Below are positions 91 to 24,445 of a stretch of 64,000 nucleotides of DNA, piece after piece. The translations under genes and the position numbers were made by a program. The stretch comes from Candidatus Spongiisociaceae bacterium (GTDB lineage Bacteria; Actinomycetota; Acidimicrobiia; Spongiisociales; Spongiisociaceae): the NCBI GenBank assembly GCA_965262915.1, contig OZ253564.1:2976001-3040000 (forward strand). The letters run 5' to 3'. The notes under the pieces are model-generated. The model was not told where the DNA came from. It did not search any database and was given only the letters and a program-made list of their open reading frames with translations. The stretch's first letter is position 1. Every line of letters begins with the position of its first letter.

Positions 91-384
91 TTACACGGCC
101 AAGGACTGTGCCCAATCGTTCATCACTTGACGTTGCGGTTCGAGTACGTCACCACGGCTATCGGCTTGTTCAGCCGCGGACCCGATCCGATGTTCCAGGC
201 ACAACTCGGCGATCTCTCTCGGTACCGACTCATCAGCGGCCCAGGTTCTCAATGTGCTTTTGAACCCATGTAGCGTTCCTCCGAGGTCGAGACCGGCTAC
301 CAGCTTCGACCACTGCGACGGCCCAACCTCGCCGCCCTTCGCCTTTGGAGACACAGAGCCCGATGGGTCGGGTCGGATCGCCAT
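91..384 (-). pseudogene. C-terminal fragment of P4-type tyrosine integrase
   Basis: HGFKSTLRTWAA..ELCLEHRIGSAAEQADSRG; closely similar to 7423-7686, but R of HxxR is K and the catalytic Y is D; no N-terminal part. Confidence 0.85.
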
Positions 385-8588: not shown

Positions 8589-8900
8589 GCTGGTCTCCGA
8601 TTCTGTCCCTCAGTCCGTCCCCGGACCCGTCCAGCAACGGACCGGGGTCCGCGCATCGGTGCATTCGGCAACGGACCGCTGTCCGCGGGCCGAAAGTTGC
8701 CCGATTCGCTGTGATTCCCCGCCGTCTTCCTCCCCAATCTATCCCCTTGTTAACCCTCGTAGCAGATAGACGACCGGGAACCGTATGAAACCTCGCGTAA
8801 CGGACATCGGCTGACTTAGTTCCCTTGGCACCTGTCGTAAAGTGCCCCTGACCTGGGAGTTTACAACGACATATGGCAGAGAGAAACGAGGAGAAACTAG

Positions 8901-8974
8901 TGGGTCGCCCGGGACTCGAACCCGGAACCTGCGGATTAAGAGTCCGTTGCTCTGCCGGATTGAGCTAGCGACCC
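8901..8974 (-). tRNA. tRNA-Lys (anticodon CTT)
   Basis: GGGTCGCTAGCTCAATCCGGCAGAGCAACGGACTCTTAATCCGCAGGTTCCGGGTTCGAGTCCCGGGCGACCCA folds as a cloverleaf; CCA not encoded. Confidence 0.95.
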
Positions 8975-11213: not shown

Positions 11214-12272
11214 TCACGCATCGGGCGCACCGGGAGCGGACGGTCCGCCAACGACCAGACCCCTGGCATCGATGACCACCTTGCCGTGCGCCACGAGGCG
11301 TCCGAGTTCCGCCATGGCCGCCACGGGATCGGCTCCGAGCGTGGACAGGAACTCGGCAACCGGCAGGCCGGTGTTGGCGACCGGGATGGCGGCCGGAGCG
11401 TCGGAGGGGGTGCTCGGTGGTTCTCCGATCACCAACTCCAGACACGCCATCAGGTCCTCGGCGTCCAGAACCGGGAAGGCTCCGTCCCGGATCAGCAGGT
11501 TGCAACCTATCGAACTCGGCCTTCCCACGTCACCCGGCGTAGCGAAGATGTCACGACCCTGATCGAGCGCGATCCGGGCGGTGACCAGCGCGCCTCCTTT
11601 GACGCCGGCCTCGACCACTACCACCGCGTGGGCGATGCCCGAGATGATCCGGTTGCGGGGAGGGAACCGCCAACCGAACGGTCGGCCGCCCGGGGGCGCC
11701 TCGCTCCACACGGTGCCACCGGCTTCGAGCAGGCTCGCACCGAGTTCCCGGTGCCGGCGGGGGTACCAGACATCCACCCCGGAGCCGAGTACCGCCACTC
11801 CCGGAGCAGGGCCGAGCAGGGAGCCACGGTGGGCGGCGCCGTCGATGCCCTTGGCGAGACCGCTCACCACCGACCAGCCGGCTCGGGAGACCGCCTCGCC
11901 GTATTGCTCCGCGAGCCGCCTGCCGTAGGTCGTGCAAGCCCTGGTACCCACGATGGCAACCGCTGTCCCTGTGAAGGAACGCCCTCGCTGGAAGAGGAAC
12001 AGGGGCGAGTCGGGTAGCTCTCGGAGATGTTCGGGGAACCTCTCATCGTCCCGGAGGAGAAAGTCGATCCTCGCGTTGCGCAGGCTTTCCCGCCGCTCGG
12101 AGGCCGGTATGGCGGCAGCTTGCCGGGCCCCGGCGGGTACGGTGAGCCTTCCCCGCTCGATATCCCGCAGCACCTTCGCAGGGGAGCCGGTCTTGGATGC
12201 CAGGCCCCGCAACCGATCGGGGTGCATCCCGACATGGGCCAGCCTGATCCAAGCATCTGCGGCGCTGGTCAT
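11214..12272 (-). CDS. dprA: DNA-processing protein DprA
   Basis: AIVGTR, VVSGLAKGIDGAAH, FPPRNRIISG, VVVEAG. Confidence 0.95.
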   Translation of the reverse strand: MTSAADAWIRLAHVGMHPDRLRGLASKTGSPAKVLRDIERGRLTVPAGARQAAAIPASERRESLRNARIDFLLRDDERFPEHLRELPDSPLFLFQRGRSFTGTAVAIVGTRACTTYGRRLAEQYGEAVSRAGWSVVSGLAKGIDGAAHRGSLLGPAPGVAVLGSGVDVWYPRRHRELGASLLEAGGTVWSEAPPGGRPFGWRFPPRNRIISGIAHAVVVVEAGVKGGALVTARIALDQGRDIFATPGDVGRPSSIGCNLLIRDGAFPVLDAEDLMACLELVIGEPPSTPSDAPAAIPVANTGLPVAEFLSTLGADPVAAMAELGRLVAHGKVVIDARGLVVGGPSAPGAPDA

Positions 12273-13688
12273 AGCACCCCCCTCAGGATCAGGGCCTCGG
12301 ACGCGTGGGGCTCCTCCACACGGTCCGATCCGGCCAGATCAGCAATGGTCCTGGCCAACCGCCGTACCCTGTCGAACCCTCTTCCGGTCAGTGAGCCATG
12401 CCTGAGGGCCCCTTCGATCAGCTTCTGGGCGGAGACGGCCATGTCCACGGCATCGAGGTCGCTCCGACCGAGATCCCGGTTGCGGCGTCCCCGCCTCCGC
12501 TGGGCTTCCCGGGCGATCGACACCCGCCCGGCCACGTCGTGGCTGGGCTCCTCGGGCGGACCGATCATTGCATCCGGGTCTACCCCCTGGACCCGGACCC
12601 GTATGTCGAACCGGTCCATCAGGGGACCCGACAGGCGCCGCCGGTAACGCTGGATCATCCTGTCGGTGCAGGTGCATCCTTGGCGGTAGTCGTTGTTGTA
12701 GCCGCACGGGCACGGGTTGGTGGCGGCTACCAGCTGCACCTTGGCCGGGAACGTCATCGAGACGCCCTTCCTGGCGATGGTCACCTGCCCTTCTTCGAGC
12801 GGCTGCCGCAGGGCGTCCAGCAACTTGGGCGGGAACTCTCCGAGTTCATCCAGGAAGAGGACTCCCTGGTGGGCCATGCTTATCTCGCCCGGTACAGGGA
12901 CGCCCGATCCGCCTCCGATGACCGCCGCGGTGGTGGCTGTGTGATGAGGCGAACGGATCGGTGGCCGGAACAGGGAGGTCCTGGGCCGTCCCGCCGATGA
13001 CCACACCTGGGCGACCTCCAAGGCGGTTTCCTCGTCGAGGCCGGGCAATACACCCGGCAGGCACCGGGCCACCATCGTCTTCCCTGCGCCGGGGGGACCG
13101 GTGAGCAGCATGTGGTGACCACCCGCGGCCGCGACCTCGAGAGCCCGCTTGGCGAGGGGCTGGCCCCGGACCTCGGCGAGATCGGGGAGATCCGGTTCGG
13201 GCTGCCGGGGACGGGGCGGGGCTGGGAAGTCTCCCTCCCCCAACGCAGCCGAGACGGCCATGGCCAGTGATCTCACGGCTTGAACGTCCGCAGAGGACAC
13301 GAGGCTCGCTTCGGCGGCTGCATCGGGGGGTAGCAGGCACGTCATCCCGAGCTTCGAGGCGACGATGGCTGCTCCCAGGCCCCCTCGGGCGGGCCGCAGC
13401 CTACCGTCCAGCGCCAGTTCTCCCAGAGCCACGACGTTGCACGCCGCATCGGGGATCTCCCCCGCGGCAGCCAGAAGAGCCAGGGCTATGGGTAGGTCGT
13501 ACGCGCTGCCCGACTTGGGTAGGTCGGCGGGCGCAAGATTGACGGTCACCGAGCGCGGCGGGAAGCGGTATCCCGACACCGCCATGGCCGCCAACACCCG
13601 GTCCTTGGCTTCCCGGACTGCGGTGTCGGGCAGCCCCACCACGTTCAATCGGCCTTTCTCTCCTCCACCTACATGGGCTTCCACGCTG
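12269..13688 (-). pseudogene. comM: ComM/YifB Mg-chelatase-like helicase, 3' part (split by the satellite)
   Basis: VGLPDTAVREAKDRV, NLAPADLPKSG, GPPGAGKT, LFLDELGEF, NPCPCG; first 21 codons lie at 24202-24265. Confidence 0.92.
13678..13688 (+). repeat. att core, left junction (CTTCCACGCTG)
   Basis: Identical to 24202-24212; extends to 15 bp with one mismatch (TGGGCTTCCACGCTG vs TGGACTTCCACGCTG). Confidence 0.9.
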
Positions 13689-13737
13689 GAAGCCAAAGTT
13701 ACTAGTTCAGGACGTAGCAGAAGCCATCATGAAACCC

Positions 13738-13766
13738 CTGTTCACCTGGGATTATAAGGTTATTCT
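13738..13766 (+). promoter_or_regulatory. Bipartite motif CTGTTCAC-N7-TATAAGGTTATTCT upstream of the integrase
   Basis: Second copy at 15052-15078 upstream of alpA. Confidence 0.6.
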
Positions 13767-13856
13767 GTAAGGGGCTGAGGTTCAGCGTATCACTTGATAA
13801 CGCTAAGAATCACCCGTTAAAGTGGTAACCAAACCGGTCACCACTTGGAAACGGAT

Positions 13857-15023
13857 ATGGCGAAACGATCAGGCGCAGCGATGACGGCAGCATTCTGCCG
13901 GACAGTGACACGGCCCGGACGGTACGGCGACGGTCGAGGCGGCCACGGTCTCTCATTACTCGTGAAACCGATGACCAGCACCGGGCGGATATCCCGCAGC
14001 TGGTCCCAACGGCTCCGCATCGACGGCCGGGTACGTTCTGTCGGCCTCGGGGCTTATCCCGCGGTCACTCTGGCCGAAGCCCGGCGGCGTGCCCTGCGCA
14101 ACGCACGGGAAGTCGCCGAAGGGCGCGACCCGTTAAAGCCGAAAACACCAACCTTCGAGCAAGCCGTTGAACGAGTCATCGGGATTCACGCGCGAAGCTG
14201 GAAGCAAGGGACGAAAACGGAAAAGGACTGGCGGCGCACACTCGCCACCTACGCGTTCCCAGTGATCGGACCGAAACGGGTAGACAAGATCGTCACCGCC
14301 GACGTGCTGCGCGTGATCCAACCGATCTGGAACGAGAAACCGGCCACAGCGCAACGGCTACGCCGCCGCATATCGGCGATCATGTCTTGGACGATAGCCG
14401 AGGGTCACCGAGCGGACGACCCGGCCGGTGCAGCTGTCCTAGCTGCGTTACCCAAGACCAACGGACCCCGAAACCATCACCGGGCGCTACCACACGCCGA
14501 AGTAGCCGACGCCGTGGCGCGGATACGACGGGTCCGAGCGCGGCCCATAACCCGACTGGTGGCCGAATTTGTCGTGCTCACGGCTTGCCGGTCCGGTGAA
14601 GCACGGGCTGCCCGCTGGAGCGAAGTAGACATGGACTCCCGGATGTGGACCGTTCCGGCCTCAAGGATGAAGAACGGCCGGGAGCATCGAGTACCGCTCA
14701 GCCGAGCCTCGTTGGCCGTCCTGGGCGAGGCGGGCGAACTCTCCGCCTGGTCTGGGTACGTGTTCCCCAACCGCTCCGGGCGTCCGCTAACCACCGAAGC
14801 CCTTCGCATGGTCTTCAGACACGCCAACCTTCAGACAACGGTTCACGGCTTCAGAACCAGCTTCAGAACATGGGCCGCCGAAGCCGGAGCGGACCGTACC
14901 GTTTCCGAGTTGTGCCTAGCCCATCGGGTCGGGTCAGCTACCGAACTCGCCTATCAACGGTCCGACCTGTTCCAGATACGGGCCGACCTGATGGAGGCCT
15001 GGGGTCAATACGTTGCCATATAG
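13857..15023 (+). CDS. P4-type tyrosine integrase with arm-binding domain, intact
   Basis: GRYGDGRGGHGLSLLV, GLGAYPAVTLAEAR, TACRSGE, MKNGREHRVPL, HGFR, LAH, LAYQRSD. Confidence 0.95.
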   Translation: MAKRSGAAMTAAFCRTVTRPGRYGDGRGGHGLSLLVKPMTSTGRISRSWSQRLRIDGRVRSVGLGAYPAVTLAEARRRALRNAREVAEGRDPLKPKTPTFEQAVERVIGIHARSWKQGTKTEKDWRRTLATYAFPVIGPKRVDKIVTADVLRVIQPIWNEKPATAQRLRRRISAIMSWTIAEGHRADDPAGAAVLAALPKTNGPRNHHRALPHAEVADAVARIRRVRARPITRLVAEFVVLTACRSGEARAARWSEVDMDSRMWTVPASRMKNGREHRVPLSRASLAVLGEAGELSAWSGYVFPNRSGRPLTTEALRMVFRHANLQTTVHGFRTSFRTWAAEAGADRTVSELCLAHRVGSATELAYQRSDLFQIRADLMEAWGQYVAI

Positions 15024-15051
15024 ACCTATATTAAAGGCCTTACCTAAATAG

Positions 15052-15114
15052 CTGTTCACTTTGATATAAGGTTATTCTTTAGTGGTTGCGGATAGAGAAA
15101 AGGGACACTACAGT
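15052..15114 (+). promoter_or_regulatory. alpA control region: second motif copy plus a sigma70-like promoter
   Basis: CTGTTCAC-N5-TATAAGGTTATTCT (15052-15078); TTGCGG-N17-TACAGT (15086-15114), 7 nt before the ATG, so probably leaderless. Confidence 0.55.
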
Positions 15115-15121
15115 AGCGTCC

Positions 15122-15322
15122 ATGACCGAACCTGATAGAAAACTCGACCGTATCATCCGACCCCGTGAACTAGGCGAGACCATCGGCATATCTCAGGCCA
15201 CGCTCCGGAGATGGTCGTCATCTGGCCGACTGCCCAAGCCGCTCAAATTTTCCGAGCGTTTTGTCGGTTGGCGAGCCAGCGTCATCCAGGAGTGGCTGGA
15301 CTCGCGGCCTCCAACCGCCTGA
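15122..15322 (+). CDS. alpA: AlpA-family regulator/excisionase
   Basis: RIIRPRELGETIGISQATLRRW..GRLPKPLKFSERFVGWRASVIQEWL. Confidence 0.88.
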   Translation: MTEPDRKLDRIIRPRELGETIGISQATLRRWSSSGRLPKPLKFSERFVGWRASVIQEWLDSRPPTA

Positions 15323-15432
15323 TACTTCGGCAACCTTTCACGCACCAACCAGGGAGAAGAACGTGATGAGCAGGACCAGATAAAGCGAGCCCGCCGGGAC
15401 GAGATTCCGGCGGGCTCTTGGAGGGGACAAGC

Positions 15433-16842
15433 ATGACCATGTCCAGACCGAATGCTAGCACACGGAAACCGGTCACGGCCGACCCCACTTCTTGGGCGCT
15501 CACCCAGCACAACCTGGCCGAAGTCTTCGCAGAACTCAACTCGATGAATCACACCCTTACCCACCGGTACACTCCGCGGGTCGGCTGGTACCAGTACCGC
15601 GCCGAGTATGGCTGGTCCCGCGACGAACTCAACCACACCCTTTCCGAGATACGCGGCCTTATGGCCCGCGCCGCCCAGTACTCGACGAAAAGCGCCGGGG
15701 CGAAGGCCCATACAATTGGGTTCGTGCGAGGCGTCGAACAGTTGGCCCGCCTCGACCCGGTTCACATAACCGCCGCCGACTGGTGGAACAGCGACCCCGA
15801 TTGGGCTGGGACACCCTACGGCAACGTCGAGTTGACCAGCGGCGAACTGTTCGCCCCCAGCCCGGCGAGGCTCATATCGCTGAGACTCGGCGCGGTTCCC
15901 GACGATGGGAAACGGCCGCACGCCTGGCTGCGGTTCCTGAACCAGGCGACCGGCTTCGATGTGGAACTGATCGACTTCCTGCAGAAGTGGATCGGCTACT
16001 GCCTGACCGGCCACACGTCCGAACACGTCCTCGCGTTCATCTACGGGCCAGGCGGAACAGGCAAATCGACGTTCGCAAATGTGGTGCGTGAACTGCTCGG
16101 ACAGTACGCCCGCCACTCGCCTATGGACACGTTCCTCGTAGCCCGCGGTGAACGGCATCCTACCGACCTGGCCGGCTTCGCCGGAGCCCGCCTCGTAACA
16201 GCCGTAGAAACCGACGAAGGCCGCCCCTGGGACGAAGCCAAACTCAAAGCCCTCACCGGAGACGACCCCATAACCGCCCGATACATGCGTAGGGATTTTT
16301 TCACCTACCGGCCCCGCTTCAAGCTACTCGTAGCAGGCAACGAGCTGCCGACCCTCAAGAGTCCCGACGAAGCGATGCGCCGACGGTTCCGCGTGGTCCC
16401 CTTCATCAACCGACCACCGAAACCCGACCGGAACCTCGCCGCCAAGCTCCGCTACGAACTCCCCGACATCCTCACCTGGGCTCTCGAAGGTACTCGCCTC
16501 TGGTACGACAACGGACTCGGCGGCGCCGCCATCGTCGAACAGGCAACCGCCGCATACTTCACCGACTCCGACCTCATAGGCCAGTGGCTCGGCGAAACCT
16601 GCACCTACACCCCCGGCGCCCAGCACCCACGCGAATCAGCCGCGACCCTCTGGCAAACGTGGACAGCATGGTCCAAGACCAACGGTATCGACCCCGGAAC
16701 ACGCCACCGATTCGGGCGGCAACTCGGCAGCCACGGCATCCACCCCGCAAAGATCGGTGGCAAAATCTACCGGCTCGGCATCCAACTACGCAGCCGCACC
16801 ACCCATCCCCCAACAGCCGACCAGGACCAGGCCCACCGATGA
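15433..16842 (+). CDS. P4-family/D5-like SF3 helicase (phage/plasmid primase C-terminal type)
   Basis: YGPGGTGKST, ARLVTAVE, LKALTGDDPITARYMRRDFF, RRRFRVVPF; RBS GAGGGG. Confidence 0.9.
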   Translation: MTMSRPNASTRKPVTADPTSWALTQHNLAEVFAELNSMNHTLTHRYTPRVGWYQYRAEYGWSRDELNHTLSEIRGLMARAAQYSTKSAGAKAHTIGFVRGVEQLARLDPVHITAADWWNSDPDWAGTPYGNVELTSGELFAPSPARLISLRLGAVPDDGKRPHAWLRFLNQATGFDVELIDFLQKWIGYCLTGHTSEHVLAFIYGPGGTGKSTFANVVRELLGQYARHSPMDTFLVARGERHPTDLAGFAGARLVTAVETDEGRPWDEAKLKALTGDDPITARYMRRDFFTYRPRFKLLVAGNELPTLKSPDEAMRRRFRVVPFINRPPKPDRNLAAKLRYELPDILTWALEGTRLWYDNGLGGAAIVEQATAAYFTDSDLIGQWLGETCTYTPGAQHPRESAATLWQTWTAWSKTNGIDPGTRHRFGRQLGSHGIHPAKIGGKIYRLGIQLRSRTTHPPTADQDQAHR

Positions 16843-16850
16843 CCACGCAA

Positions 16851-16982
16851 AGGACCTTCAGGACGATTAGGACCTTTCTCCCGTTTGGTCCCGCCCGCGC
16901 GTATGCGCGCGCGTCATGCGTATGCGCGCGTGCACACGTGAAGGCGATACCATGAAAAGGTCCTAATCGTCCTGATGGTCCT
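16851..16982. other. Putative replication origin of the satellite
   Basis: 27-bp inverted repeat (26/27) with three AGGAC units per arm, flanking a purine-pyrimidine alternating core, directly after the helicase gene. Confidence 0.65.
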
Positions 16983-17141
16983 GATTCCGAGAACGATTCC
17001 CAAACACCTACCCTCCGCCCGTCACAACAGAAAGGACCAACCAGTGTCAGTACAAGACAGCTACTCAATCAACCCACCACCAAGCCCCACCCCGACGACC
17101 CACCTCCAAGGCAGACTCACCGAGTACGACCGCCAACAGCA

Positions 17142-17435
17142 TTGACGACTACGACGACCTCGGCGCCTCCCGAGGAAGTGTGCGGGGGCGAGCTGTGTGT
17201 GGAGGACAACTACTACTTCGAGCGTTTCGGCAACGACTATTGGGCGTTCCGATTCCGGGTGGATAAGTCGTGCAGCGGGTTCTACGTCGAGGTTCATCTG
17301 CTCGATGACAACGGTCGTCGCACAGGCGACTGGGGAAACGACTTCGTGGGTTCGGTGACTGAGGGTGGCCAAGTGACTGTCGAGGTGCGGTACACCAAGG
17401 ACTGGTCCCAGTACGAGTTCGAGTGGTCCTGTTAG
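17142..17435 (+). CDS. Small FxLYD-like beta domain with Thr-rich stalk, probably N-truncated
   Basis: TTTTTSAPP then YVEVHLLDDNGRRTGDWGNDFVGSVTEGGQVTVEV; no signal peptide; TTG start. Confidence 0.45.
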   Translation: MTTTTTSAPPEEVCGGELCVEDNYYFERFGNDYWAFRFRVDKSCSGFYVEVHLLDDNGRRTGDWGNDFVGSVTEGGQVTVEVRYTKDWSQYEFEWSC

Positions 17436-17451
17436 TAGCCGCATTGAGAGC

Positions 17452-18978
17452 ATGCTTTCCCGGTCGATAGTTGACTATCTCGAAGGGCTGACTGTTTCTC
17501 AGGGACGGCTGGCCGGTGAGCCGTTTCGGGTGTTGCCGTGGGAGGGTCGTTTCATTCGGGGGGCGTTCCGGACGGACGTGACGACGGCGGCGCTATCGGT
17601 CGCTAGGGCGAACGGTAAGACCTCGTTGACGGCTGGGATCTCCGCGGCGACGTTGGACGGTCCGCTGGTGGTGCCGCGGGGTGAGACGGTGATCGTGGCG
17701 TCGAGTTTCGAGCAGGCTCGGATAGCGTTTGAGCATGTTCGGGCGTTCATGGAACCGACCTTGGCCGAGGATCGGAAGCGGCGTTTTTCGGATCGCCGGT
17801 GGCGGGTTTGGGACACGGCGCAGCAGGCGCGGATTGAGGACCGGCAGACGGGTGCTCGGGTGCGTTGTGTTGGTTCTGATCCGCGTCGGGCGCATGGTTT
17901 GGCGCCGGTACTTGTTCTTGCTGACGAACCGGCTCAGTGGCCGCCTACTACCGGGGAGCGGATGGTGGCGGCGTTGAGGACGGCGGCGGGTAAGCAGCCT
18001 CACTCCCGGTTTGTGGCTTTGGGTACTCGTCCGGATGATCCGGAGCATTGGTTCGCGAAGATGCTGTCGGGTGGTGCGGACTATTCGCAGTGTCACGCGG
18101 CCCGGCCTGGCGATCCACCGTTTCAGAAGCGGACTTGGACGCGGGCAAATCCGTCGATGCGGTTCATGCCTGATCTTGAGGCGGCGATCCGGGCTGAGGC
18201 GCAGCAGTCGAAACGTGACCCGTCGTTGCTGGCATCGTTCGAGGCGTTGCGGCTGAATCTTGGGACTCCGGACACTGAGACTGCGGTGCTGTTAGACGCC
18301 GGGTTGTGGGCGTCGATTGAGGGCGAAGCGCCGATGGTCGGCCCGGCCGTCTGGGGTGTTGATTTGGGTACGTCGGCGGCTCAGTCGGCGGTTGCGTGTT
18401 TCTGGCCGGAGTCGGGTGCGTTGGCGGTGTTGGCAGCCTTCCCGGAGATTCCGTCGCTTGAGGAACGCGGCCGCCGTGACGGTGTGGCCGGCCTTTATCG
18501 GGAATGCCACCGTCGGGGCGAACTGTTGACCCTGGAACGGCGGGCTGTGGACGTGGAGCAGCTGCTGCAGATGGCGTTGGACCGTTTCGGCCGCCCCAGC
18601 GTGGTTGTTGCGGACCGTTGGCGGGAAGCCGAACTCCGTGACGGTCTGGACCGGGCGAGGGTTCCGGCGGCGGCGTTCGAGACTAGGGGTATGGGTTTCA
18701 AGGACGGTGGGGAGGATGTTCGCCAGTTTCGTCGGGCTTGCGCTGACGGCATCGTTACACCGGTCCGGAGTCTGCTGTTGCGGTCTGCGATGGCTGAGGC
18801 TCGTACCGTGAGCGATCCGGCTGGTAACTCGAAGTTGGGGAAGGGTTCGCAGGGCGGCCGTCGGTTGCGGGCTCGGGATGACGCGGCCGCAGCGGCGATC
18901 CTGGCGGTGGCTGCAGGGATGCGACGGCGGTCACGCGGCCCGGCCCGTCGGAGGCTGCGGACAGCTCTGGTCGGCTGA
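17452..18978 (+). CDS. terL: Terminase large subunit
   Basis: SVARANGKT (Walker A), LVLADEP (Walker B), RANPS, WGVDLG and DDAAAA nuclease acidic motifs. Confidence 0.9.
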   Translation: MLSRSIVDYLEGLTVSQGRLAGEPFRVLPWEGRFIRGAFRTDVTTAALSVARANGKTSLTAGISAATLDGPLVVPRGETVIVASSFEQARIAFEHVRAFMEPTLAEDRKRRFSDRRWRVWDTAQQARIEDRQTGARVRCVGSDPRRAHGLAPVLVLADEPAQWPPTTGERMVAALRTAAGKQPHSRFVALGTRPDDPEHWFAKMLSGGADYSQCHAARPGDPPFQKRTWTRANPSMRFMPDLEAAIRAEAQQSKRDPSLLASFEALRLNLGTPDTETAVLLDAGLWASIEGEAPMVGPAVWGVDLGTSAAQSAVACFWPESGALAVLAAFPEIPSLEERGRRDGVAGLYRECHRRGELLTLERRAVDVEQLLQMALDRFGRPSVVVADRWREAELRDGLDRARVPAAAFETRGMGFKDGGEDVRQFRRACADGIVTPVRSLLLRSAMAEARTVSDPAGNSKLGKGSQGGRRLRARDDAAAAAILAVAAGMRRRSRGPARRRLRTALVG

Positions 18979-19005
18979 TCGCCCTCCAGATCAGCACGCC
19001 ACTGG

Positions 19006-19158
19006 CTACCGCAACTTTAACGCAGCTAGCAAAGCAATCACCCCAAGGCCCACGCCCAACGCCTGTCGCCACGGGGGGTCGAAGAACCAACTGAGGTTTG
19101 TCCCAACCACAAGGACAACGACGACGATCACGACGATTGCTATAGCCTTCTCCATCAT
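19006..19158 (-). CDS. Small two-helix membrane protein (satellite cargo)
   Basis: MMEKAIAIVVIVVVVLVVG...WRQALGVGLGVIALLAALKLR; fills the terL-HNH gap. Confidence 0.55.
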   Translation of the reverse strand: MMEKAIAIVVIVVVVLVVGTNLSWFFDPPWRQALGVGLGVIALLAALKLR

Positions 19159-19195
19159 GCTCGGAGCGTAACCGCCGCAACGGTAGGTTTGGGGA

Positions 19196-19480
19196 ATGTC
19201 CCGCCACCACCTGACCCTCAACCGCCGTAGGTGGGCGATTGTCCGTCGTGCCGCCCTGCATCGTGACGCCTGGCGGTGTCAGCAGTGTGGGCGGGCGGGC
19301 CGGCTGGAGGTCGATCACGTCCGGGCGCTTGAGGATGGCGGCGATCCGTGGGCGCCCGATAACCTGCAGGCCCTTTGCCGGCGGTGTCACATTCGCAAGA
19401 CAACGGTGGAGAATCGGGCTCGTCGCCCGGTGTTGCCGGAGGTTGAAGCGTGGATTCAGTTGGTGGACGAGTTGCTCTGA
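19196..19480 (+). CDS. HNH endonuclease (terminase-associated)
   Basis: RDAWRCQQCG..LEVDHV..GG..DNLQALCRRCHIRKT. Confidence 0.92.
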   Translation: MSRHHLTLNRRRWAIVRRAALHRDAWRCQQCGRAGRLEVDHVRALEDGGDPWAPDNLQALCRRCHIRKTTVENRARRPVLPEVEAWIQLVDELL

Positions 19481-19528
19481 CCCGTCTCTCAAGTTAACCC
19501 CCGGGAAGCTTCCTGCCAGTCGTCACGC

Positions 19529-19894
19529 CTACCGCTCCGAATCGAGCCTCGGGACCCAGCCGTCCCAATCCCTTTCCGGATAGTGCTTTTTCACCACCCT
19601 GTATGTGGGTGATAGATCAAGAGCTTGGTTCCCCACTTGGGGATGGTCCAAGGTGACCATCTTCCCTTTGAGTTCCACGACCACGCCGGCGTAAAGCTTC
19701 GCGGACGCTAGACCCGGCACTGTCTGAATCTGAACCCAGCGTTTGGGATTCTGGGCTTTCTGGTTTTCCTTGAGCCTTGGGTAGTAAGGGAGAACGACCG
19801 ACGGTCTGCTTTTCCACCAGGTTAAGACCGCGATCGGTGCGCCTGCGATGACTACGACGCTCGCAACCAAGTTCACTACTTCAAGAACCGTCAT
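19529..19894 (-). CDS. Hypothetical N-terminally anchored membrane protein (satellite cargo)
   Basis: One hydrophobic helix then a basic soluble domain; visibly lower GC; GAGG RBS. Confidence 0.6.
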   Translation of the reverse strand: MTVLEVVNLVASVVVIAGAPIAVLTWWKSRPSVVLPYYPRLKENQKAQNPKRWVQIQTVPGLASAKLYAGVVVELKGKMVTLDHPQVGNQALDLSPTYRVVKKHYPERDWDGWVPRLDSER

Positions 19895-19995
19895 GTGCGA
19901 TCCTCACTAAATGACCCATAGACCGCAGGGTACATCTTGCCGCTGAGGATCTATGGGAAATGGCGGAGACCGGTTGTTGCACCAGGTCTCAGTTC

Positions 19996-20047
19996 GTATC
20001 AGATAGTATCATCTACTGATAACCATGGATAATGGTAAAATTATCTC
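19996..20047 (+). promoter_or_regulatory. Putative capsid-operon promoter/operator
   Basis: AT-rich; TATCAG...CTGATA dyad (19997-20021); extended -10 TGGTAAAAT (20033-20041) 6 nt before the ATG. Confidence 0.5.
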
Positions 20048-21346
20048 ATGACTCCGAAGCAACGCCTCCAATTGGAACAGTCCGAGAAACGCCAGCGTCT
20101 CAATGACCTGCTCGCCGAAGACCAGCTATCAGACGAGCAGCGGTCCGAGATGGACGACTTCACCAAGCGAATGCAGCAGATCGAAGTCGAGATGCGGGCA
20201 GCGATCATCGCGGAACCCGATCCGGTCACGTCACCGGCAGCGGACAACACGGACCGGGACCGGCTCGAACTCCGGTCGAAGGCGTCTGTGGGCCGCTACC
20301 TGCTCGCTGCTATGCGGGGCCGTTCTGTTCAGGGTGCGGAGCGGGAACTGTTGGACGAGGCCGGACTCGATGATGGGACGATCCCCCTGGAGTTGTGGGA
20401 CACGAACCGGCCGGTGGAGCAGCGGGCCGATTCGGTGTCGGGTTCGCCCTCTACGGTTGGCGTGAACCTGGACCGGCTACGGCCTGCCGTGTTCGCACCG
20501 TCGATCCTGCCCCGGCTGGGTGTGGAAATGCCAAGGGTCGCCTCGGGTACTTACGCGTCCGGGACAATCACGACCTCGTTGACCGCCGCGGCTCAGGCGA
20601 AGGGTGACGCGGCTTCGGCGTCGGCGGCTGCGTTCACCGTCACGTCCGTCACCCCGAAGCGGATCTCCGCACGGCTTGCCATAGCAATTGAGGATGTGGC
20701 CGCGGTCGGTCAGGCCAACTTCGAGAGCATCCTACGAGAGAACCTCAGCCTGGCGCTGTCGAATGAGTTGGACAAGCAGGGTCTCAACGGAGCGGGCGGC
20801 AACTCGGGCAAAGACCTGGTGGGTGTTTTCCACCGGCTTGACAACCCGACCGCACCAACCGCCGCGGCCACCTTCGACGCGTTCGTAGCCGCGTTCGCCG
20901 GTGGGATAGACGGGCTGTGGGCGCGCACCGTGTCCGAGGTAGCGGTCGTGGCCGGTGTTACCACCTACGGGCTGTCCGCGAAGACGTTCCGGGACCGGGT
21001 GATCGACACCGGACAGCGGGGCGGGGTGTCGCTCGGTGACACATCGTTCGCTGACTATGCGATGGCGAACTATGGCGGATGGTGGACGAACAAGCGGATG
21101 CCCGCCGCTGACGCCACGTCGAAGGTTCAACAGGCCATCCTCTACCGGAAGGGCCGGTCGATGATGGGCGGCTCCGGTGGGATGCGCACCGCGGTGTGTC
21201 CCCATTGGAACATGATCAGCATTGACGACATCTACTCCGGCTCGGCGCAGGGTGAGCGGTACTTCACCATGCACGTCCTGTTGGGCGATGTGATCCTGGT
21301 CCAGCCCGACGCTTACGCGCAGGTCGCGTTCAAGACGGCGGCGTGA
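20048..21346 (+). CDS. Major capsid protein, HK97 fold with N-terminal delta (scaffold) domain
   Basis: Coiled-coil N-terminus, AQAKGD, FTVTSVTPKRISARL, LRENLSLALSNELDKQGLNG, VQPDAYAQV; position in head module. Confidence 0.82.
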   Translation: MTPKQRLQLEQSEKRQRLNDLLAEDQLSDEQRSEMDDFTKRMQQIEVEMRAAIIAEPDPVTSPAADNTDRDRLELRSKASVGRYLLAAMRGRSVQGAERELLDEAGLDDGTIPLELWDTNRPVEQRADSVSGSPSTVGVNLDRLRPAVFAPSILPRLGVEMPRVASGTYASGTITTSLTAAAQAKGDAASASAAAFTVTSVTPKRISARLAIAIEDVAAVGQANFESILRENLSLALSNELDKQGLNGAGGNSGKDLVGVFHRLDNPTAPTAAATFDAFVAAFAGGIDGLWARTVSEVAVVAGVTTYGLSAKTFRDRVIDTGQRGGVSLGDTSFADYAMANYGGWWTNKRMPAADATSKVQQAILYRKGRSMMGGSGGMRTAVCPHWNMISIDDIYSGSAQGERYFTMHVLLGDVILVQPDAYAQVAFKTAA

Positions 21347-21347
21347 T

Positions 21348-22223
21348 GTGCCGGAGCGTGCTGCCGCGGTCGAGTTCCGCGTTTCGGGTCGCACCCTTGT
21401 AGGGGAGGCCATCCGTTACAACCAGCAGGCCCGTGACCGGGCGGAACTGTTCGAGTCGGGAGCGTTCCAACCCATAGGGGACGTGACCCTCAACTTACAG
21501 CACGACCCGGAACGGGTGATCGCTGACACCAGGGCCGGAACGTTGCGGATCGACGACAGTCCCGACGCTCTCCGACTCGAAGCCGATCTGCGGGAGAACT
21601 CGGCGGAACTGGCGCTCGTGAGACGCCGCGCTCTGCGTGGCCTGAGCGTCGAGTTCCGCTGCCGGTCCGAACGGCGAGACGACGGCCTGCGGGTAGTCGA
21701 GAAGGCCGACCTTCCCGCTATCGGGCTGGTCGACTCAGGTAGCTACCGGACCGGTGTCGAACTACGGGCCGCGTTCGGCGACGCCTGGTTGACTGCCGAG
21801 ATTCGGTTTGGTACCCGGATGCAATGCCAATGTCAGGGGCTGACCTGCACCGATGTCGAGTTCGAGCCCGGAGCGTTCACCGACCTGATGGAGCGCCGCG
21901 ATGTCCTAGCTGTCGGCGGTGGCGGATTTGCCAACGTGTTGGGCTCTACCCGCCGGGGAACGCTGCTGGTCGAGCAGACCGACAAGGGTCTCCGGGTTGG
22001 GTTGACCAACCAGCAGACGGACACGGCCCGGCGAGTGATCGAAGCCGCCGCGGTTGCTGACATCTTCGTGCGGCCGCTGATCGACGTTGAACAGTCCGAG
22101 TACCAGGATGAGGGCACCACCAGACGCTACACACGGGCTGTCACACGGGCGCTACTGGTCAAACCAACCCCCGACCAGCCGAGGCCACCGGGCAGCCCGT
22201 GTACGGGGCGTACAGACCCGTAG
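21348..22223 (+). CDS. HK97-family prohead protease with a second, degenerate protease-like domain
   Basis: RTLVGEAIRY, ELFESGAF, LNLQHD (His), RGLSVEF (Ser), IGLVD. Confidence 0.85.
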   Translation: MPERAAAVEFRVSGRTLVGEAIRYNQQARDRAELFESGAFQPIGDVTLNLQHDPERVIADTRAGTLRIDDSPDALRLEADLRENSAELALVRRRALRGLSVEFRCRSERRDDGLRVVEKADLPAIGLVDSGSYRTGVELRAAFGDAWLTAEIRFGTRMQCQCQGLTCTDVEFEPGAFTDLMERRDVLAVGGGGFANVLGSTRRGTLLVEQTDKGLRVGLTNQQTDTARRVIEAAAVADIFVRPLIDVEQSEYQDEGTTRRYTRAVTRALLVKPTPDQPRPPGSPCTGRTDP

Positions 22224-22232
22224 GAGGCGGCT

Positions 22233-22547
22233 GTGGCTGTAACCCTCACCGCGCAGCAGCTCGCGGACGAGACCAGCGCAGACCTCGACCGGGCTACTCG
22301 TGTGCTCGCCGTTGCCCGCCGGATGGTCGAGGACTACGCGCCGCTCGCACCGTCTGAGATACAGGACGAAGCCGCAATCCGGTTCGGCGGCTATCTGCTC
22401 AGCAGTGACTACGGCGCGGTTCGTGACGAGTCGATAGGGCCTATGTCGGTGTCCTATGTGGTCAACCATTCCAGCGCTTTCAGAAACTCCGGTGCGGCCA
22501 TGTTGCTGACCAGGTACAAGCAGCGAAGAGCCGGGACTGTCGGATGA
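22233..22547 (+). CDS. Head-tail connector (gp6/gp15-like)
   Basis: 104 aa helical; ARRMVEDYAP, EAAIR, DESIGPMSVSY, LLTRYK; AGGAGG RBS. Confidence 0.7.
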   Translation: MAVTLTAQQLADETSADLDRATRVLAVARRMVEDYAPLAPSEIQDEAAIRFGGYLLSSDYGAVRDESIGPMSVSYVVNHSSAFRNSGAAMLLTRYKQRRAGTVG

Positions 22548-23608
22548 GATGGCCGTGGACCCGTACCGAGAAGCGCGACTCGGGTGGCGACTTCTCCGAC
22601 GCAGTGGTACGTCTCATCGAGGCGCAGGCCGCAGGCACAGCAGCCGACGCCAGCAGCACTGCCGGTGTGGAAGCAGCAGCCGGTGCCCTCTCCCGATCCT
22701 TCGCCGCCGCCACCGTAGAAGCCGAACCCTGGGCACGGGAAGCCGTCACCCCGGTTGTGCTGGCTCAGATCGGCCGTGACCTCGTAAGGTCCGGCGATTC
22801 ACTGCACGTCATCCAGGTGGTCGGCGGCCGGGCGAAACTGATTCCGTGTTCCTCGTGGCATTGGGAAGGTAGCCATGATCCGGACACCTGGACCGTGCGG
22901 GCAACCGCCTACGGGCCTTCCACGTCCACCACCTGGAACCTTCCCGCGTCTGGTGTCGTGTTCGTCCGTTGGGGATCAACACCCGGCCAGCCGTATGTTG
23001 GGGTAGGGCCTACATCGTGGGCGCAGACCACCGCCCGCCTCCAATCCCAAGCCGAGAAGGCGCTGGCCGACGAGTCCGGCGGGCCTATCACCAACCTGCT
23101 GCCCGTTCCCCAAGACGGTGGCGACGGGTCCGACACGGACCCTCTCGCACCGCTCAAGGCCGACATAGCAGCAGCCCGCGGCCGGGCGGTACTCGTCGAA
23201 ACCACATCGGCCGGATGGGGCGAGGGGAAGATGGCAGCACCACAAGCCGACTGGCAGGTACGACGCCTCGGCCCGAACCCCACCCAAGTACAAGCCACCG
23301 TCGCGCAGCAAGCCTTCGAGCGCACCCTCGCCGCCTGCGGCGTGCCACCGTCACTGTTCATTAGCGACGACGGCACCGCACAGCGTGAAGCCGTCCGACG
23401 CTGGCACCTGGGAACCGTCATCCCCCTCGCCGACCTGGCGGCCTGGGAACTGGCCGCCAAGCTCGAAACGCCGGTCACGCTCCGCTTCGACAGCTACCCG
23501 CTCGACCTCGCGGGAAGGGCGCAGGCGTTCCAGAAACTCGTCGCCGGGGGCATGGACACCGACCGTGCATTGCAGATATCCGGGCTGATGGTTGACGATG
23601 CCGCGTAG
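22544..23608 (+). CDS. Phage portal protein (divergent HK97-like)
   Basis: GVEAAAGALSRSFA, IGRDLVRSGD, YVGVGP, LAACGVPPSLF, VIPLADLAAWELAAKL. Confidence 0.78.
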   Translation: MRWPWTRTEKRDSGGDFSDAVVRLIEAQAAGTAADASSTAGVEAAAGALSRSFAAATVEAEPWAREAVTPVVLAQIGRDLVRSGDSLHVIQVVGGRAKLIPCSSWHWEGSHDPDTWTVRATAYGPSTSTTWNLPASGVVFVRWGSTPGQPYVGVGPTSWAQTTARLQSQAEKALADESGGPITNLLPVPQDGGDGSDTDPLAPLKADIAAARGRAVLVETTSAGWGEGKMAAPQADWQVRRLGPNPTQVQATVAQQAFERTLAACGVPPSLFISDDGTAQREAVRRWHLGTVIPLADLAAWELAAKLETPVTLRFDSYPLDLAGRAQAFQKLVAGGMDTDRALQISGLMVDDAA

Positions 23609-24059
23609 ATGCGAACTCGACGGCTGCGACAACCCCTACCTGGCCCGGGGCATGTGCAACAAGCACTACCTACGATGGAAAACCCGCGGTGGCAAGACCA
23701 GGCCACGACCCGCGCTGTGGTCACCCGAGGAAGACAGGTTGCTGCTCGCTGCCGGGTTGACACCCCACACCGAACGATGGTCTGGCGAGTCCCGCTTGCG
23801 TGATGTTGCCCGCGAGCTTGGCCGCACCGAGACGGCATGCTGCACCCGTCTCAACCGGCTGATGAAGCGGGCCGGACATGCAGGCGGCCAGTGGACCGTC
23901 GAAGGTCTCTGGACCCCGGAGGAAGACGCAGTGATCCTCGAACAGGCAGCCTCAGGACAGCCCGACTGGATCGCTACCGGCCGCTTGCTGGGTCGAACCC
24001 GTGCGGCGTGCGCGGTCCGGGCCTACAACCTCCGCAAGCAGGAGCGTCTCGCTAGCTGA
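23598..24059 (+). CDS. Zn-finger (Cx4Cx9Cx2H) plus two Myb/SANT-like repeats, probable DNA-binding protein
   Basis: CELDGCDNPYLARGMCNKH; WSPEEDRLL..VARELGRTETACCTR; WTPEEDAVI..W...GRLLGRTRAACAVR. Confidence 0.7.
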   Translation: MPRRCELDGCDNPYLARGMCNKHYLRWKTRGGKTRPRPALWSPEEDRLLLAAGLTPHTERWSGESRLRDVARELGRTETACCTRLNRLMKRAGHAGGQWTVEGLWTPEEDAVILEQAASGQPDWIATGRLLGRTRAACAVRAYNLRKQERLAS

Positions 24060-24201
24060 TGTCCGCGGGCGCGATCTCCGGGCTGGTGGCCGATGGGTTA
24101 GCAACTCCGCTGGCGCTCATCCGAAAACACGTTGGCATAGCGGAAGTGGTAATCGGAACTTCCGAAAACGCCGTGACCTGGGGAAACACTCCCTTGCTGG
24201 A

Positions 24202-24212
24202 CTTCCACGCTG
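24202..24212 (+). repeat. att core, right junction (CTTCCACGCTG)
   Basis: Identical to 13678-13688; encodes S-V-E of ComM on the minus strand. Confidence 0.9.
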
Positions 24213-24265
24213 ACGGCACGCGCCTTCACTCCGACCAGCGCTACAGAATTGGTTGATGCAAACAT
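24202..24265 (-). pseudogene. comM: ComM N-terminal 21 codons
   Basis: MFASTNSVALVGVKARAVSVE joins in frame to AHVGGGEKGRLNVVGLPD through the att core. Confidence 0.9.
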
Positions 24266-24396: not shown

Positions 24397-24445
24397 CGCC
24401 GGTAGGTATGGGGATCGCCGGTAGGCATGGAAATCGACGGTTAGG
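24397..24445. repeat. 19-bp tandem repeat, about 2.5 copies, upstream of comM
   Basis: CGCCGGTAGGTATGGGGAT / CGCCGGTAGGCATGGAAAT / CGACGGTTAGG. Confidence 0.6.

Follow-up and report, generated by a model that had tools for sequence, protein, structure and literature searches.

A probable capsid-forming, tail-borrowing phage satellite integrated in comM of an actinobacterial chromosome

A discrete island of 10.5 kb, at nt 13678–24212 of the 64 kb window (the whole stretch of chromosomal DNA that was analysed), is probably an integrative, capsid-forming phage satellite that borrows its tails. Its function would be like that of the cf-PICIs, and it appears to represent an independent lineage with an architecture of its own. 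Published cf-PICIs are described as carrying capsid, protease, portal, connector, HNH and terminase genes and no tails (10.1101/2022.09.08.507074; PMC10085698), and the cf-PICI-like reading follows from the same gene-content logic in the island. The life cycle is read from gene content; given a full set of head genes and a packaging motor, and no tail genes, it most likely spreads by means of borrowed phage tails. This agrees with the original prediction of a cf-PICI-like satellite lineage, and the suggestion that the family is undescribed is likewise favoured: relatives share the compact gene set, and a tblastn search of 50,697 deposited phage records gave no match to the capsid or portal and at most 27% identity to TerL. 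The host can be placed in the Actinomycetota, because its genome carries four WhiB genes and neither LpxC nor GcrA.

Insertion in comM

The island is bounded, as predicted, by exact att cores. The 11-mer CTTCCACGCTG has just two copies on the + strand of the window, the attL core at 13678–13688 and the attR core at 24202–24212, the start of the latter having been placed at 24201 originally. Taken alone, a repeat of 11 nt is weak evidence for boundaries, since 57 of 2000 shuffles produced a match of at least this length between the two 350 nt boundary zones. The boundaries are supported independently of the repeat by the target gene and by an empty site. The portion of comM left of the insertion (12269–13696, − strand) encodes a ComM/Mg-chelatase-family protein (PF01078, 6.6e-84; PF13541, 3.4e-36; PF13335, 2.7e-19), and the first 18 codons of this minus-strand gene are displaced to the right of 24212 (24202–24265 with the attR core). 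Excision in silico of the element and one core restores the reading frame, the displaced codons then being in frame with ORF 12269–13696. In public run X8, from an independent study, one contig has nt 13677 joined to 24202, skipping exactly 10,524 nt, with 11 letters shared and a depth of 19.5, equal to that of the flanks. A loose end at 24198 in run X6 bears letters found left of attL.

The island entered comM by site-specific insertion, the work of a tyrosine integrase; its att cores are precise, another population has the site empty, and the precision of the X8 empty site indicates recent mobility. A circular attP junction, which had been proposed as a check, is not listed among the contigs of four runs, and contigs drop rare forms. 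In run X1, the likely source, the element has a depth of about 48–128, not higher than that of its flanks (113–156).

Gene content of the island

The left part of the island is a PICI-type front end, in which an integrase, alpA and a replication gene are co-directional (+ strand). The tyrosine integrase (13845–15023; PF00589, 7e-19; PF22022, 3.1e-23; PF13356, 1.8e-12; phrog_1, 3.4e-48) and the AlpA-family regulator/excisionase (15086–15322; PF05930, 5.9e-10; phrog_66, 8.7e-11) had both been predicted, and Pfam and PHROG matches agree on them. The third gene (15418–16842; PF19263, 2.1e-13; PF08706, 1.3e-6), first called a helicase, does encode a replication protein of the D5 primase-helicase type, but its product is more exactly the C-terminal part of a D5_N/DUF5906 primase-helicase, as seen from its match to phrog_6088 (2.9e-94). 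The predicted ori-like repeat follows at 16851–16982. Its arms (16851–16877 and 16956–16982) are 27 nt each, 96% complementary and built from AGGACC-type 9 nt units, with tandem units of period 9 at 16959–16985; from its position directly after the replication gene, this inverted repeat may serve as the replication origin.

Packaging and head genes, again on the + strand, come in the order TerL–HNH–capsid–protease–adaptor–portal, so that packaging genes are first and the portal last, as had been noted from the sequence. The first four were predicted and each has PHROG or Pfam matches. TerL (17452–18978) is of the HK97-like type, with a strong match to phrog_9 (1.2e-50), a PF03354 match slightly below the cut-off (6.8e-5) and 27.5% identity to HK97 gp2 (E 2e-30). 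It is followed by an HNH endonuclease, a putative packaging accessory (19196–19480; PF01844, 6.6e-11; phrog_589, 1.8e-19), and by a major capsid protein of the HK97 family (20048–21346; phrog_10, 1.6e-10), for which the PF05065 match (8.7e-6; 25.8 bits) exceeds the cut-off of 24.2. The prohead serine protease of family S78 (21348–22223) matches PF04586 in two stretches (5e-15) and consists of two S78-like halves, residues 13–139 and 171–239 each aligning to the protease of the E. coli cf-PICI EcCIEDL933.

The predicted connector and portal have no family match of their own (Pfam and PHROG for the connector, Pfam for the portal), and both assignments are supported by structure models. The connector (22233–22547; pLDDT 84.2) is modelled as a head-to-tail adaptor with the HK97 gp6/SPP1 gp15 fold. 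Phage neck/adaptor chains fill the first 15 rows given by VIA-align, led by HK97 gp6 (rmsd 2.8 over 78 residues; Z 7.7, a range that VIA-align grades as middling), and the next, unrelated rows have Z values of at most 3.6; the best Foldseek match is SPP1 gp15 (prob 0.93, E 0.24). The short portal protein (22544–23608, 354 aa; pLDDT 64.8) gave 35 Foldseek matches in the PDB at E ≤ 1e-3, and those listed are all portal or neck/connector entries of tailed viruses or GTA, including Mycofy1 (2e-7), RcGTA, GBSV1 and HK97. Moreover, PF04860 is matched by 22 of 29 aligned members of the portal family (best 4.1e-14), and the homologue in the second copy of the island scores 43.4 bits, above the cut-off.

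After the portal lies the predicted Myb-like gene, which encodes a Zn-ribbon and double-Myb DNA-binding protein (23592–24059, + strand; PF00249, 8.1e-8; phrog_323, 2.9e-9). Over its first 35 aa it resembles the N-termini of HNH-endonuclease PHROGs. It is a candidate cos-recognition or regulatory protein. Tail, holin, endolysin, CI-type repressor and TerS families gave no match among the 12 ORFs examined, in keeping with the predicted lack of tail, lysis, repressor and recognisable TerS genes. The sole TerS-labelled match (phrog_4581) was rejected because it covers the HNH domain of the HNH protein. As annotated, packaging and head completion are incomplete, since no TerS was recognised and there is only one neck protein. 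Two further ORFs were not in the earlier gene list. One (17142–17435, + strand, 97 aa) has no Pfam, PHROG or PADLOC match, no function assignment and no homologue in its own genome or the relative loci retrieved, so that it is not conserved in the family; its best Atlas score of 0.82 is a lead only. The other (19529–19894, − strand, 121 aa), in a variable slot of lower GC (0.58–0.59) between HNH and capsid, is without Pfam, PHROG, PADLOC or Atlas match or a homologue in the other loci compared, and is read as cargo.

Relatives and known systems

The six genes from TerL to portal recur in the same order in 15–16 of 16 loci compared; among these are a second copy elsewhere in the genome of the island, loci from Pseudomonadota MAGs and IMG/VR contigs, of which one is circular. 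The HNH gene lies immediately downstream of TerL in 15 of them, the capsid gene is present in all 16, and the Myb-like gene follows the portal in five. In several (L006, L008, L037 and L054) the stretch between the integrase and the first gene beyond the portal, both included, measures about 10.3–10.5 kb, and the compact gene set is thus shared by other genomes. The second copy, 60 kb away, is intact, with identities to the island of 54% for portal and TerL, 79% for protease and 29% for capsid; replication modules are exchanged between copies, being of the D5 type in the island and AAA_25 in the second copy and in L053. One IMG/VR member, a contig of 13,632 nt, is taken to be circular because of a 55 nt terminal overlap; besides the core it encodes a replication protein and a Tn3 transposase, it has no recognisable integrase, and a search for tail genes found none in it. 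The single head-completion gene originally noted holds for the island but not throughout the family, since a second such gene occurs in seven of the 16 loci, and the island copy could thus be a reduced variant.

Downstream of the portal, 115 ORFs of at least 100 aa from the 16 related loci matched 68 families; the 25 of these that were listed include no recurrent tail family, and four of the ORFs match integrases. A single ORF each matched three 'tail fiber' PHROGs and one endolysin PHROG, which tells against the satellite reading. Of 8000 candidates scored, 1927 were portal homologues at E ≤ 1e-3, and a portal profile matched 1594 clusters (50% identity) at E ≤ 1e-30, pointing to a large and old family that is apparently unnamed. 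Named relatives are mostly Pseudomonadota MAGs. The portal was found in none of 400 other sampled genomes of the host phylum, in five of 24 of the host family and in two of seven of the same genus; judged from these samples, the family is not special to the host lineage of the island.

Among cf-PICIs, comparison was made with the E. coli prototype EcCIEDL933 (O157:H7, NZ_CP008957.1, 1680329–1694760), the Firmicutes lineages being left out. Both are integrative islands of similar size order (10.5 and 15.4 kb) with the same co-directional front end, and both encode their own HK97-type capsid, S78 protease, portal, head-tail adaptor, HNH and TerL, with capsid before protease and no tail or lysis genes. 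Homology is detectable for the integrase (21%), AlpA (36%), HNH (35%) and protease (29%), whereas the capsid, portal and adaptor of the island show no BLAST or phmmer similarity to their counterparts, and TerL is more distant from that of EcCIEDL933 (21%, E 1.5e-9) than from that of HK97. The order in EcCIEDL933 is capsid–protease–portal–head closure–connector–HNH–TerS–TerL, and the island differs further in lacking a TerS, in having one neck protein rather than two and a Myb-like gene after the portal, and in its actinomycetotal host.

HK97 (NC_002167.1) shares the TerL type, an HK97-family capsid with an S78-type protease, packaging that appears to depend on an HNH nuclease, the gp6 adaptor fold and the portal fold (8cez, E 6.4e-6). 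It is, however, a 39.7 kb tailed phage that also has TerS, a head-closure protein and genes for tail and lysis; its order is TerS–TerL–portal–protease–capsid–adaptor, and its capsid and portal have no BLAST match to those of the island. By sequence comparison, the head proteins of the island are no closer to EcCIEDL933 than to HK97. Elements of the phiRv1/phiRv2 type are Actinomycetota islands of ~10 kb with integrase, primase and some head or packaging genes and, to our knowledge, without portal and adaptor. Such small mycobacterial prophage-like elements have been classed as PICI (PMC10085698). The Streptomyces satellites MulchRoom and MiniFlayer, which are satellites of Actinomycetota phages, resemble the island in that they are described as encoding TerL, portal, capsid, head-to-tail adaptor and HNH of their own, with a tyrosine integrase in MulchRoom; as described, they are set apart by having a scaffolding protein and a TerS and by clustering with phages of Microbacterium and Streptomyces (PMC10690885).

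Life cycle and alternative readings

If the island is a tail-borrowing satellite, a signal of helper-phage infection would lead AlpA to turn on excision and the element operons, and the D5-type primase-helicase would replicate the circle from the iteron/inverted-repeat origin downstream of its own gene. The HK97-type capsid protein, the S78 protease and the short portal would form a small prohead, into which TerL with the HNH nuclease would package unit-length DNA of ~10.5 kb, cut at a cos-type site; DNA recognition without a canonical TerS might fall to the Zn-ribbon/Myb protein, a weakly supported candidate. The gp6-like adaptor would close off the portal, and the helper phage would supply the remaining neck parts, tail and lysis to the filled heads.

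No resident tailed prophage was found in the host genome by five phage marker families: PF04860 and PF05065 match nothing beyond the two elements and one remnant, and PF10145, PF03237 and PF05133 gave no matches. A helper would therefore have to come from outside. The same result favours a self-sufficient minimal element, moving without a dedicated helper as tail-less DNA-filled heads or a plasmid-like circle, either by release on lysis and subsequent uptake or by opportunistic pairing with free environmental tails of unrelated phages. The circular relative without a recognisable integrase and the occurrence of close relatives in different phyla fit this too, and tail-less cf-PICI capsids are reported to pair with the tails of other phages (10.1101/2025.02.11.637232). 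We nevertheless consider it unlikely, as no entry or lysis function is encoded and the known role of gp6-like adaptors is to join the portal to further neck and tail proteins; wherever tails are still borrowed, it overlaps the satellite reading.

It is more doubtful still that the island is what remains of a decayed tailed temperate phage, its head and packaging region, immobile as a unit. In favour of this, the gene set is a subset of that of an HK97-like phage, clear remnants of the family occur in the genome (a portal fragment, a TerL fragment interrupted by a stop codon and an integrase split over three frames), and one portal homologue (G420) contains a stop. Against decay, all 10 core ORFs of the island are intact, and the empty site shows recent mobility. 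As the compact architecture, complete with integrase, replication gene and att sites, recurs in all 16 loci and at about 10.3–10.5 kb elsewhere, the island does not appear to be a one-off deletion, and derivation by deletion from a tailed prophage, raised with the original prediction, is not borne out by the phage records, none of which has a capsid or portal related to those of the island. A domesticated GTA-like or compartment-forming function, packaging host DNA or cargo for the benefit of the cell, is very improbable: R. capsulatus GTA portals take ranks 2, 3, 5 and 7 among the structural matches and the capsid is of HK97 type, but GTAs do have tail genes and the element has none, its presence varies between populations and among genomes of its genus and family, TerL with HNH is typical of specific cos cutting, and the element has a replication module of its own as well as an integrase and att sites.

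Gene content and boundaries of the element

The element (13678–24212) is inserted in comM and begins with genes for a tyrosine integrase (13845–15023; PF00589), AlpA (15086–15322; PF05930) and a D5_N/DUF5906 primase-helicase (15418–16842; phrog_6088, 2.9e-94), all on the plus strand. These are followed by a 27 nt inverted repeat, 96% complementary, with 9 nt AGGACC-type units (16851–16982), an unconserved plus-strand ORF of 97 aa, TerL (17452–18978; phrog_9, 1.2e-50) and an HNH gene (19196–19480; PF01844, 6.6e-11), the last two also on the plus strand. An ORF of 121 aa without relatives lies on the minus strand between HNH and the capsid gene. The remaining genes, again on the plus strand, encode the capsid (20048–21346; phrog_10, with PF05065 just above the cut-off), a 291 aa S78 protease (21348–22223; PF04586), a probable 104 aa adaptor assigned by the fold of its model (22233–22547), a 354 aa short portal assigned by its homologue family and the fold of its model (22544–23608), and a Myb-like protein that combines two Myb repeats with a Zn ribbon at its N-terminus (23592–24059; PF00249, phrog_323). 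The gene set of the original prediction (int, alpA, helicase, terL, HNH, capsid, protease, connector, portal and Myb-like) was recovered in full by these families and folds.

The claimed lack of tail, lysis and repressor genes was also borne out, none of the 12 element ORFs matching a tail, holin, endolysin or CI-type repressor family in Pfam or PHROG. The same holds for TerS, which had been described as unrecognisable: no element ORF matches a TerS family in either collection, save that the HNH domain matches a TerS-HNH fusion family, and no small conserved ORF adjoins TerL across the 16 family loci compared. The element may carry a divergent or analogous TerS-like protein.

The gap between HNH and capsid (19480–20048) has a lower GC content (0.58–0.59), and its 121 aa ORF has a hydrophobic N-terminus. 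Other family members carry different genes at the same position, and the gap is, to judge from gene content, a variable cargo slot. Neither ORF of unknown function matched anything in PADLOC, nor did the Myb-like protein or four ORFs of the second element in this genome (copy 2). Protein Atlas gave nothing usable for the 121 aa ORF and, for the 97 aa ORF, a best score of 0.82 to unnamed viral clusters, which serves as a lead only. The protease has two S78-like halves (residues 13–139 and 171–239), each aligning to the protease of EcCIEDL933, the prototype capsid-forming satellite of E. coli O157:H7; the proteases of relatives have either this long two-half form or a form of about 200–220 aa.

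The 11-mer CTTCCACGCTG has only two plus-strand copies in the whole 64 kb window, at 13678–13688 (attL) and 24202–24212 (attR). Taken alone this repeat is weak evidence, because an equally long match between both boundary zones arose in 57 of 2000 shuffles. The gene at 12269–13696 (minus strand) is a ComM/Mg-chelatase-family gene without its first residues (PF01078, 6.6e-84; PF13541; PF13335), and in silico removal of the element with one core supplies 18 codons, beginning with an ATG to the right of 24212 and running in frame into 12269–13696. An empty site was found in the public sequencing run X8, where a contig joins 13677 to 24202, skipping 10,524 nt, with 11 letters common to both sides; depth was 19.5 at the junction, 19.5–23 in the flanks and 0–7 in the element interior. 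In a further run (X6), a loose end at 24198 continues with the letters left of attL, and depth was near 80 in the flanks and 0–39 in the interior. The study behind X8 differs from that of the run that covers the window best, and all four runs examined were represented by contigs only. The comM frame together with the X8 and X6 contigs therefore shows that the insertion is present in some populations and absent from others. The insertion is site-specific, its ends are precise and its empty site is polymorphic. The predicted att-bounded ends (13678 and 24212) proved exact by the comM frame and the X8 junction, with the correction that the right core starts at 24202 and not at 24201; no circular attP junction of the element was listed among the contigs of the four runs. 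Among the sequencing runs listed as carrying the window, none was of RNA. Just outside attR, upstream of comM, is a 19 nt tandem duplication (24397–24434), represented by one unit in contigs of X8 and of another run, X5.

Identification of the portal and probable adaptor

Among 8000 scored candidates, 1927 were homologous to the portal at E ≤ 1e-3, the best 120 being 67–90% identical and about 350 aa long. PF04860 (Phage_portal) was matched by 22 of 29 aligned family members (best 4.1e-14), and the homologue in copy 2 scored over the cut-off, at 43.4 bits. The AlphaFold model of the element protein is of moderate quality only (pLDDT 64.8) and gave 35 Foldseek matches at E ≤ 1e-3; those listed were all portal or neck/connector proteins of tailed viruses or a gene transfer agent (Mycofy1, 2e-7; RcGTA; GBSV1; HK97). 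In a PDB sequence profile search, the best match was a 'phage portal protein', 9i8c (E 0.14). The 354 aa protein is a short portal.

The adaptor has 113 homologues, none carrying a Pfam domain, and a PDB sequence profile search found nothing below E 0.1. Its model is good (pLDDT 84.2), with SPP1 gp15 as the best Foldseek match (probability 0.93, weak E of 0.24). By VIA-align, the top 15 rows were all phage neck or adaptor chains, led by HK97 gp6 (Z 7.7, rmsd 2.8 over 78 residues; a Z under 8 is rated middling) and then Douge, T5, phiXacJX1, the SaPI1 neck, YqbG and SPP1 gp15, while the first unrelated rows stood at Z 3.6. Since the top rows are uniform and a clear gap lies beneath them, the 104 aa protein is likely, if not certainly, a gp6/gp15 adaptor. 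No second neck gene occurs between adaptor and portal in the element or in copy 2, consistent with the single head-completion gene originally proposed, but that description does not extend to the whole family: in 7 of the 16 loci this position is occupied by an additional ORF of about 150 aa (phrog_939 'head protein', 1.8e-6).

Copies, relatives and hosts

Copy 2 (L052) is intact and lies 60 kb upstream in the same contig (about 2925452–2937260) and is flanked by a 14 nt direct repeat. It encodes an integrase, AlpA, the head set, a Myb-like protein and an AAA_25 replication protein in place of the D5 type. Its proteins are 79% (protease), 55% (adaptor), 54% (portal and TerL), 32% (Myb-like) and 29% (capsid) identical to those of the element, and its TerL-HNH block, in which an ISL3 transposase separates the two genes, is inverted with respect to the capsid operon. 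Remnants are found elsewhere in the contig: a TerL fragment beside an integrase (4480003–4481562; 66–70% identical, with an internal TGA) and a portal fragment (4377633–4377971; 48% identical). The genome holds ten further near-full-length integrase paralogues. In the window, an integrase paralogue (about 47% identical) is spread over three broken frames beside tRNA-Lys(CTT) (7432–8597 and 8900–8974, minus strand) and is apparently what remains of another island at a tRNA site; a C-terminal piece of one more integrase occurs at 94–363 (minus strand).

A scan of named genomes gave 15 loci (portal 59–73% identical), 14 in metagenome-assembled genomes (MAGs) labelled Alpha- or Gammaproteobacteria, Micropepsaceae or Rhodospirillaceae and one in Binatia. 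Eleven of these have TerL, HNH, capsid, adaptor and portal in order on one strand; one has the capsid-to-Myb part alone, and three, including that of Binatia, are remnants. Metagenome contigs added seven loci, six with the full order, and IMG/VR four contigs with the same gene order when the portal alignment was the query; a scan with the single portal protein gave no match there. All-against-all clustering of the ORFs of 16 loci found capsid, protease, adaptor and portal in all 16, TerL and HNH in 15, integrase in 10, AlpA in 6 and the Myb-like protein in 5. The original prediction that other genomes share the compact gene set is thereby upheld, the six-gene core recurring in the same order across loci. 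Four relatives (L006, L008, L037 and L054) span about 10.3–10.5 kb. The IMG/VR contig L053 (13,632 nt) is circular, as its ends overlap by 55 nt; besides the six-gene core it encodes an AAA_25 replication protein and a 971 aa transposase of the Tn3 family, and no integrase or tail gene was recognised in it. About 20 of the 113 contigs with adaptor homologues are 9–11 kb long, and L037 (10,299 nt, without terminal overlap) begins shortly before the integrase and ends shortly after the portal region. Such contigs might be taken for virion or episome DNA; they were discarded as particle evidence because assembly breaks at the element borders explain the pattern equally well.

Loci with similar capsid and portal backbones differ in their terminases. 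In L015, L017, L037, L039 and L042, TerL is 71–74% identical to that of the element, and in L006, L010, L012–L014, L038 and L040 it is of a second type, 28–31% identical, which suggests exchange of the terminase among family members. A non-coding motif of about 60 nt, absent from the window, is shared by L010, L014, L038 and L040 some 150–250 nt upstream of TerL, and could be a cos site, a promoter or a small RNA.

The host genome is a single 5.06 Mb contig (completeness 96.4%). The related MAGs suggested an alphaproteobacterial host, but the genome has four WhiB genes and neither LpxC nor GcrA, and the host is therefore an actinobacterium; among 14 control genomes, the WhiB family was matched in Corynebacterium only. 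Within the host family, 5 of 24 genomes matched the portal query (2 of 7 in the genus), compared with none of 16 elsewhere in the order and none of 400 other evenly sampled genomes of the phylum (E ≤ 1e-10). The Micropepsaceae MAG itself has three copies, and in an even sample of its phylum 3 of 400 other genomes matched, at only 25–29% identity. A search of 1.84 billion representatives with a portal profile retrieved 1594 clusters (50% identity) at E ≤ 1e-30. Reference genomes thus contain the family only patchily, whereas metagenome assemblies contain it in abundance.

Intact elements occur in Actinomycetota and Pseudomonadota, with a remnant in a Binatia MAG, and proteins of the Pseudomonadota MAGs are 60–74% identical to those of the element. 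In the portal tree, the element and a homologue from another host-family genome (G420) fall just outside the Pseudomonadota/metagenome group (support 85/99, not starred), and copy 2 and the homologue from genome G413 branch much deeper; the sample is biased to near kin, the retrieval patterns being derived from the element portal, and is silent on the direction of transfer.

Relation to tailed phages, gene transfer agents and capsid-forming satellites

An alternative is that the element is a deletion derivative, with its closest homologues in complete tailed prophages. TerL matched 166 phage records, all below 60% identity and with HK97-like phages in the top rows (27%), and neither capsid nor portal gave a tblastn match in 50,697 deposited phage genomes. 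The ORFs of at least 100 aa that follow the portal gene in 16 loci, 115 in all, were compared with PHROGs. Among the 25 listed of 68 matched families, the recurrent ones were integrases (four ORFs) and transposases, whereas three 'tail fiber protein' families and one 'endolysin' family were each matched by a single ORF; the ten longest downstream ORFs are not those behind the single tail-fiber matches. A rare tail gene may occur downstream of the portal in relatives; a conserved tail module there is, as judged by protein families, excluded across the 16 loci. With no phage match for capsid or portal and no recurrent tail family, the closest homologues lie, as predicted, outside complete tailed prophages. 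The element itself is not a complete temperate tailed phage (Caudoviricetes prophage), having no tail, lysis or immunity modules in 13678–24212 and att cores that restore comM. Gene transfer agents are fixed chromosomal clusters with tail genes and without an integrase, att or replication module, and one of the RcGTA type was rejected on account of the integrase, att cores and replication gene, and of a presence that varies between populations.

Proteobacteria and Firmicutes are the groups in which capsid-forming satellites, among them the capsid-forming PICIs (cf-PICIs), have been characterised to date; such satellites have their own heads and use helper tails. Like a cf-PICI, the element has a left-end integrase, an AlpA-type regulator and a primase-replicase, its own capsid, prohead protease, portal, TerL and HNH, and no tail or holin genes. 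To our knowledge, the known capsid-forming satellite lineages carry TerS and several neck proteins; unlike the cf-PICI model, the element has no TerS that could be recognised. The SatelliteFinder description (PMC10085698) gives the cfPICI model 11 core components and allows neither tails nor holins. By Pfam and PHROG models and by fold, rather than by SatelliteFinder profiles, nine of the 11 functions are recognisable in the element, and TerS and a second neck protein are the two not recognised.

The order in EcCIEDL933 is int, HTH and, further along, a DUF927 replication gene, then after other genes capsid, protease, portal, head closure, connector, HNH, P27-type TerS and TerL. Four element proteins are detectably related to those of the prototype (integrase 21%, AlpA 36%, HNH 35% and protease 29% identical), and TerL is 21% identical to that of EcCIEDL933 (E 1.5e-9) as against 27.5% to that of HK97 (E 2e-30). 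Capsid, portal and adaptor gave no match to their counterparts, in a comparison that covered the Proteobacterial one of the three described cf-PICI lineages, the other two being from Firmicutes. As no TerS is recognisable, its head proteins are unrelated in sequence to those of the prototype and its gene order differs, the element cannot be shown to belong to these lineages. Among other compact elements, mini HK97 genomes are described as being without terminase and portal (PMC13669383), and EPIPs as being without capsid genes (PMC12822802). Supplementary element lists (PMC10085698, PMC10690885) aside, no description of such an architecture was found in the literature on capsid-forming satellites and PICIs.

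The element has a complete, intact set of head and packaging genes and no tail or lysis genes, its architecture is conserved in many genomes, and one relative is circular. The originally proposed cf-PICI-like interpretation stands after the comparisons with tailed prophages and with other genomes, and the element most likely works like a cf-PICI. From what is known of these families, AlpA would drive excision and expression, the primase-helicase would replicate the element from the iteron region, an HK97-type prohead would assemble and be matured by the protease, and the adaptor would bind the portal. TerL with HNH would make cos-type cuts, as reportedly happens in HK97-like phages (Kala et al. 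2014, cited in PMC10085698). The five markers used reveal no resident tailed prophage in the host genome: PF04860 and PF05065 match only the two elements and a remnant, and PF10145 (tape measure), PF03237 (Terminase_6N) and PF05133 (SPP1 portal) have no match. A helper would therefore have to be an incoming phage.

More speculatively, the Myb-like protein may stand in for TerS as the partner that recognises DNA. It starts with a Zn ribbon of a kind seen at the N-termini of phage HNH endonucleases, and its gene ends the head operon. By sequence it is present in only 5 of the 16 loci, other loci having a different small HTH gene there, and a predicted complex with TerL scored 0.00, which gives no verdict.

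A bolder and rather doubtful reading is that the family forms a fourth, independent lineage of capsid-forming satellites, ultra-compact and TerS-less, perhaps Myb-guided, tail-promiscuous and a vehicle for gene flow between phyla. In such a lineage, of about 10.5 kb and six head and packaging genes, the Zn-ribbon/Myb protein with HNH and TerL may recognise the cos site, and heads with only a generic gp6-like adaptor could accept the neck and tail assemblies of unrelated phages. Promiscuous tail acceptance, if true, would explain how a monoderm actinobacterium and diderm Pseudomonadota come to have portals and terminases 67–74% identical, and would make the family such a vehicle.

The family would represent the capsid-forming satellite strategy pared down to a differently ordered set of six head and packaging genes; it is numerous in metagenomes, yet its capsid and portal are unmatched among deposited phages. 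Provided that the particles exist, testable subjects would include a self-encoded HK97-type head smaller than any other known to package a replicon, a terminase system without a recognisable TerS, and the carriage of a mobile element across phylum boundaries by tail-borrowing. In annotation, islands of this kind can easily be mistaken for defective prophages, and some of them already appear as viruses in the output of virus-detection pipelines, as with the four IMG/VR contigs.
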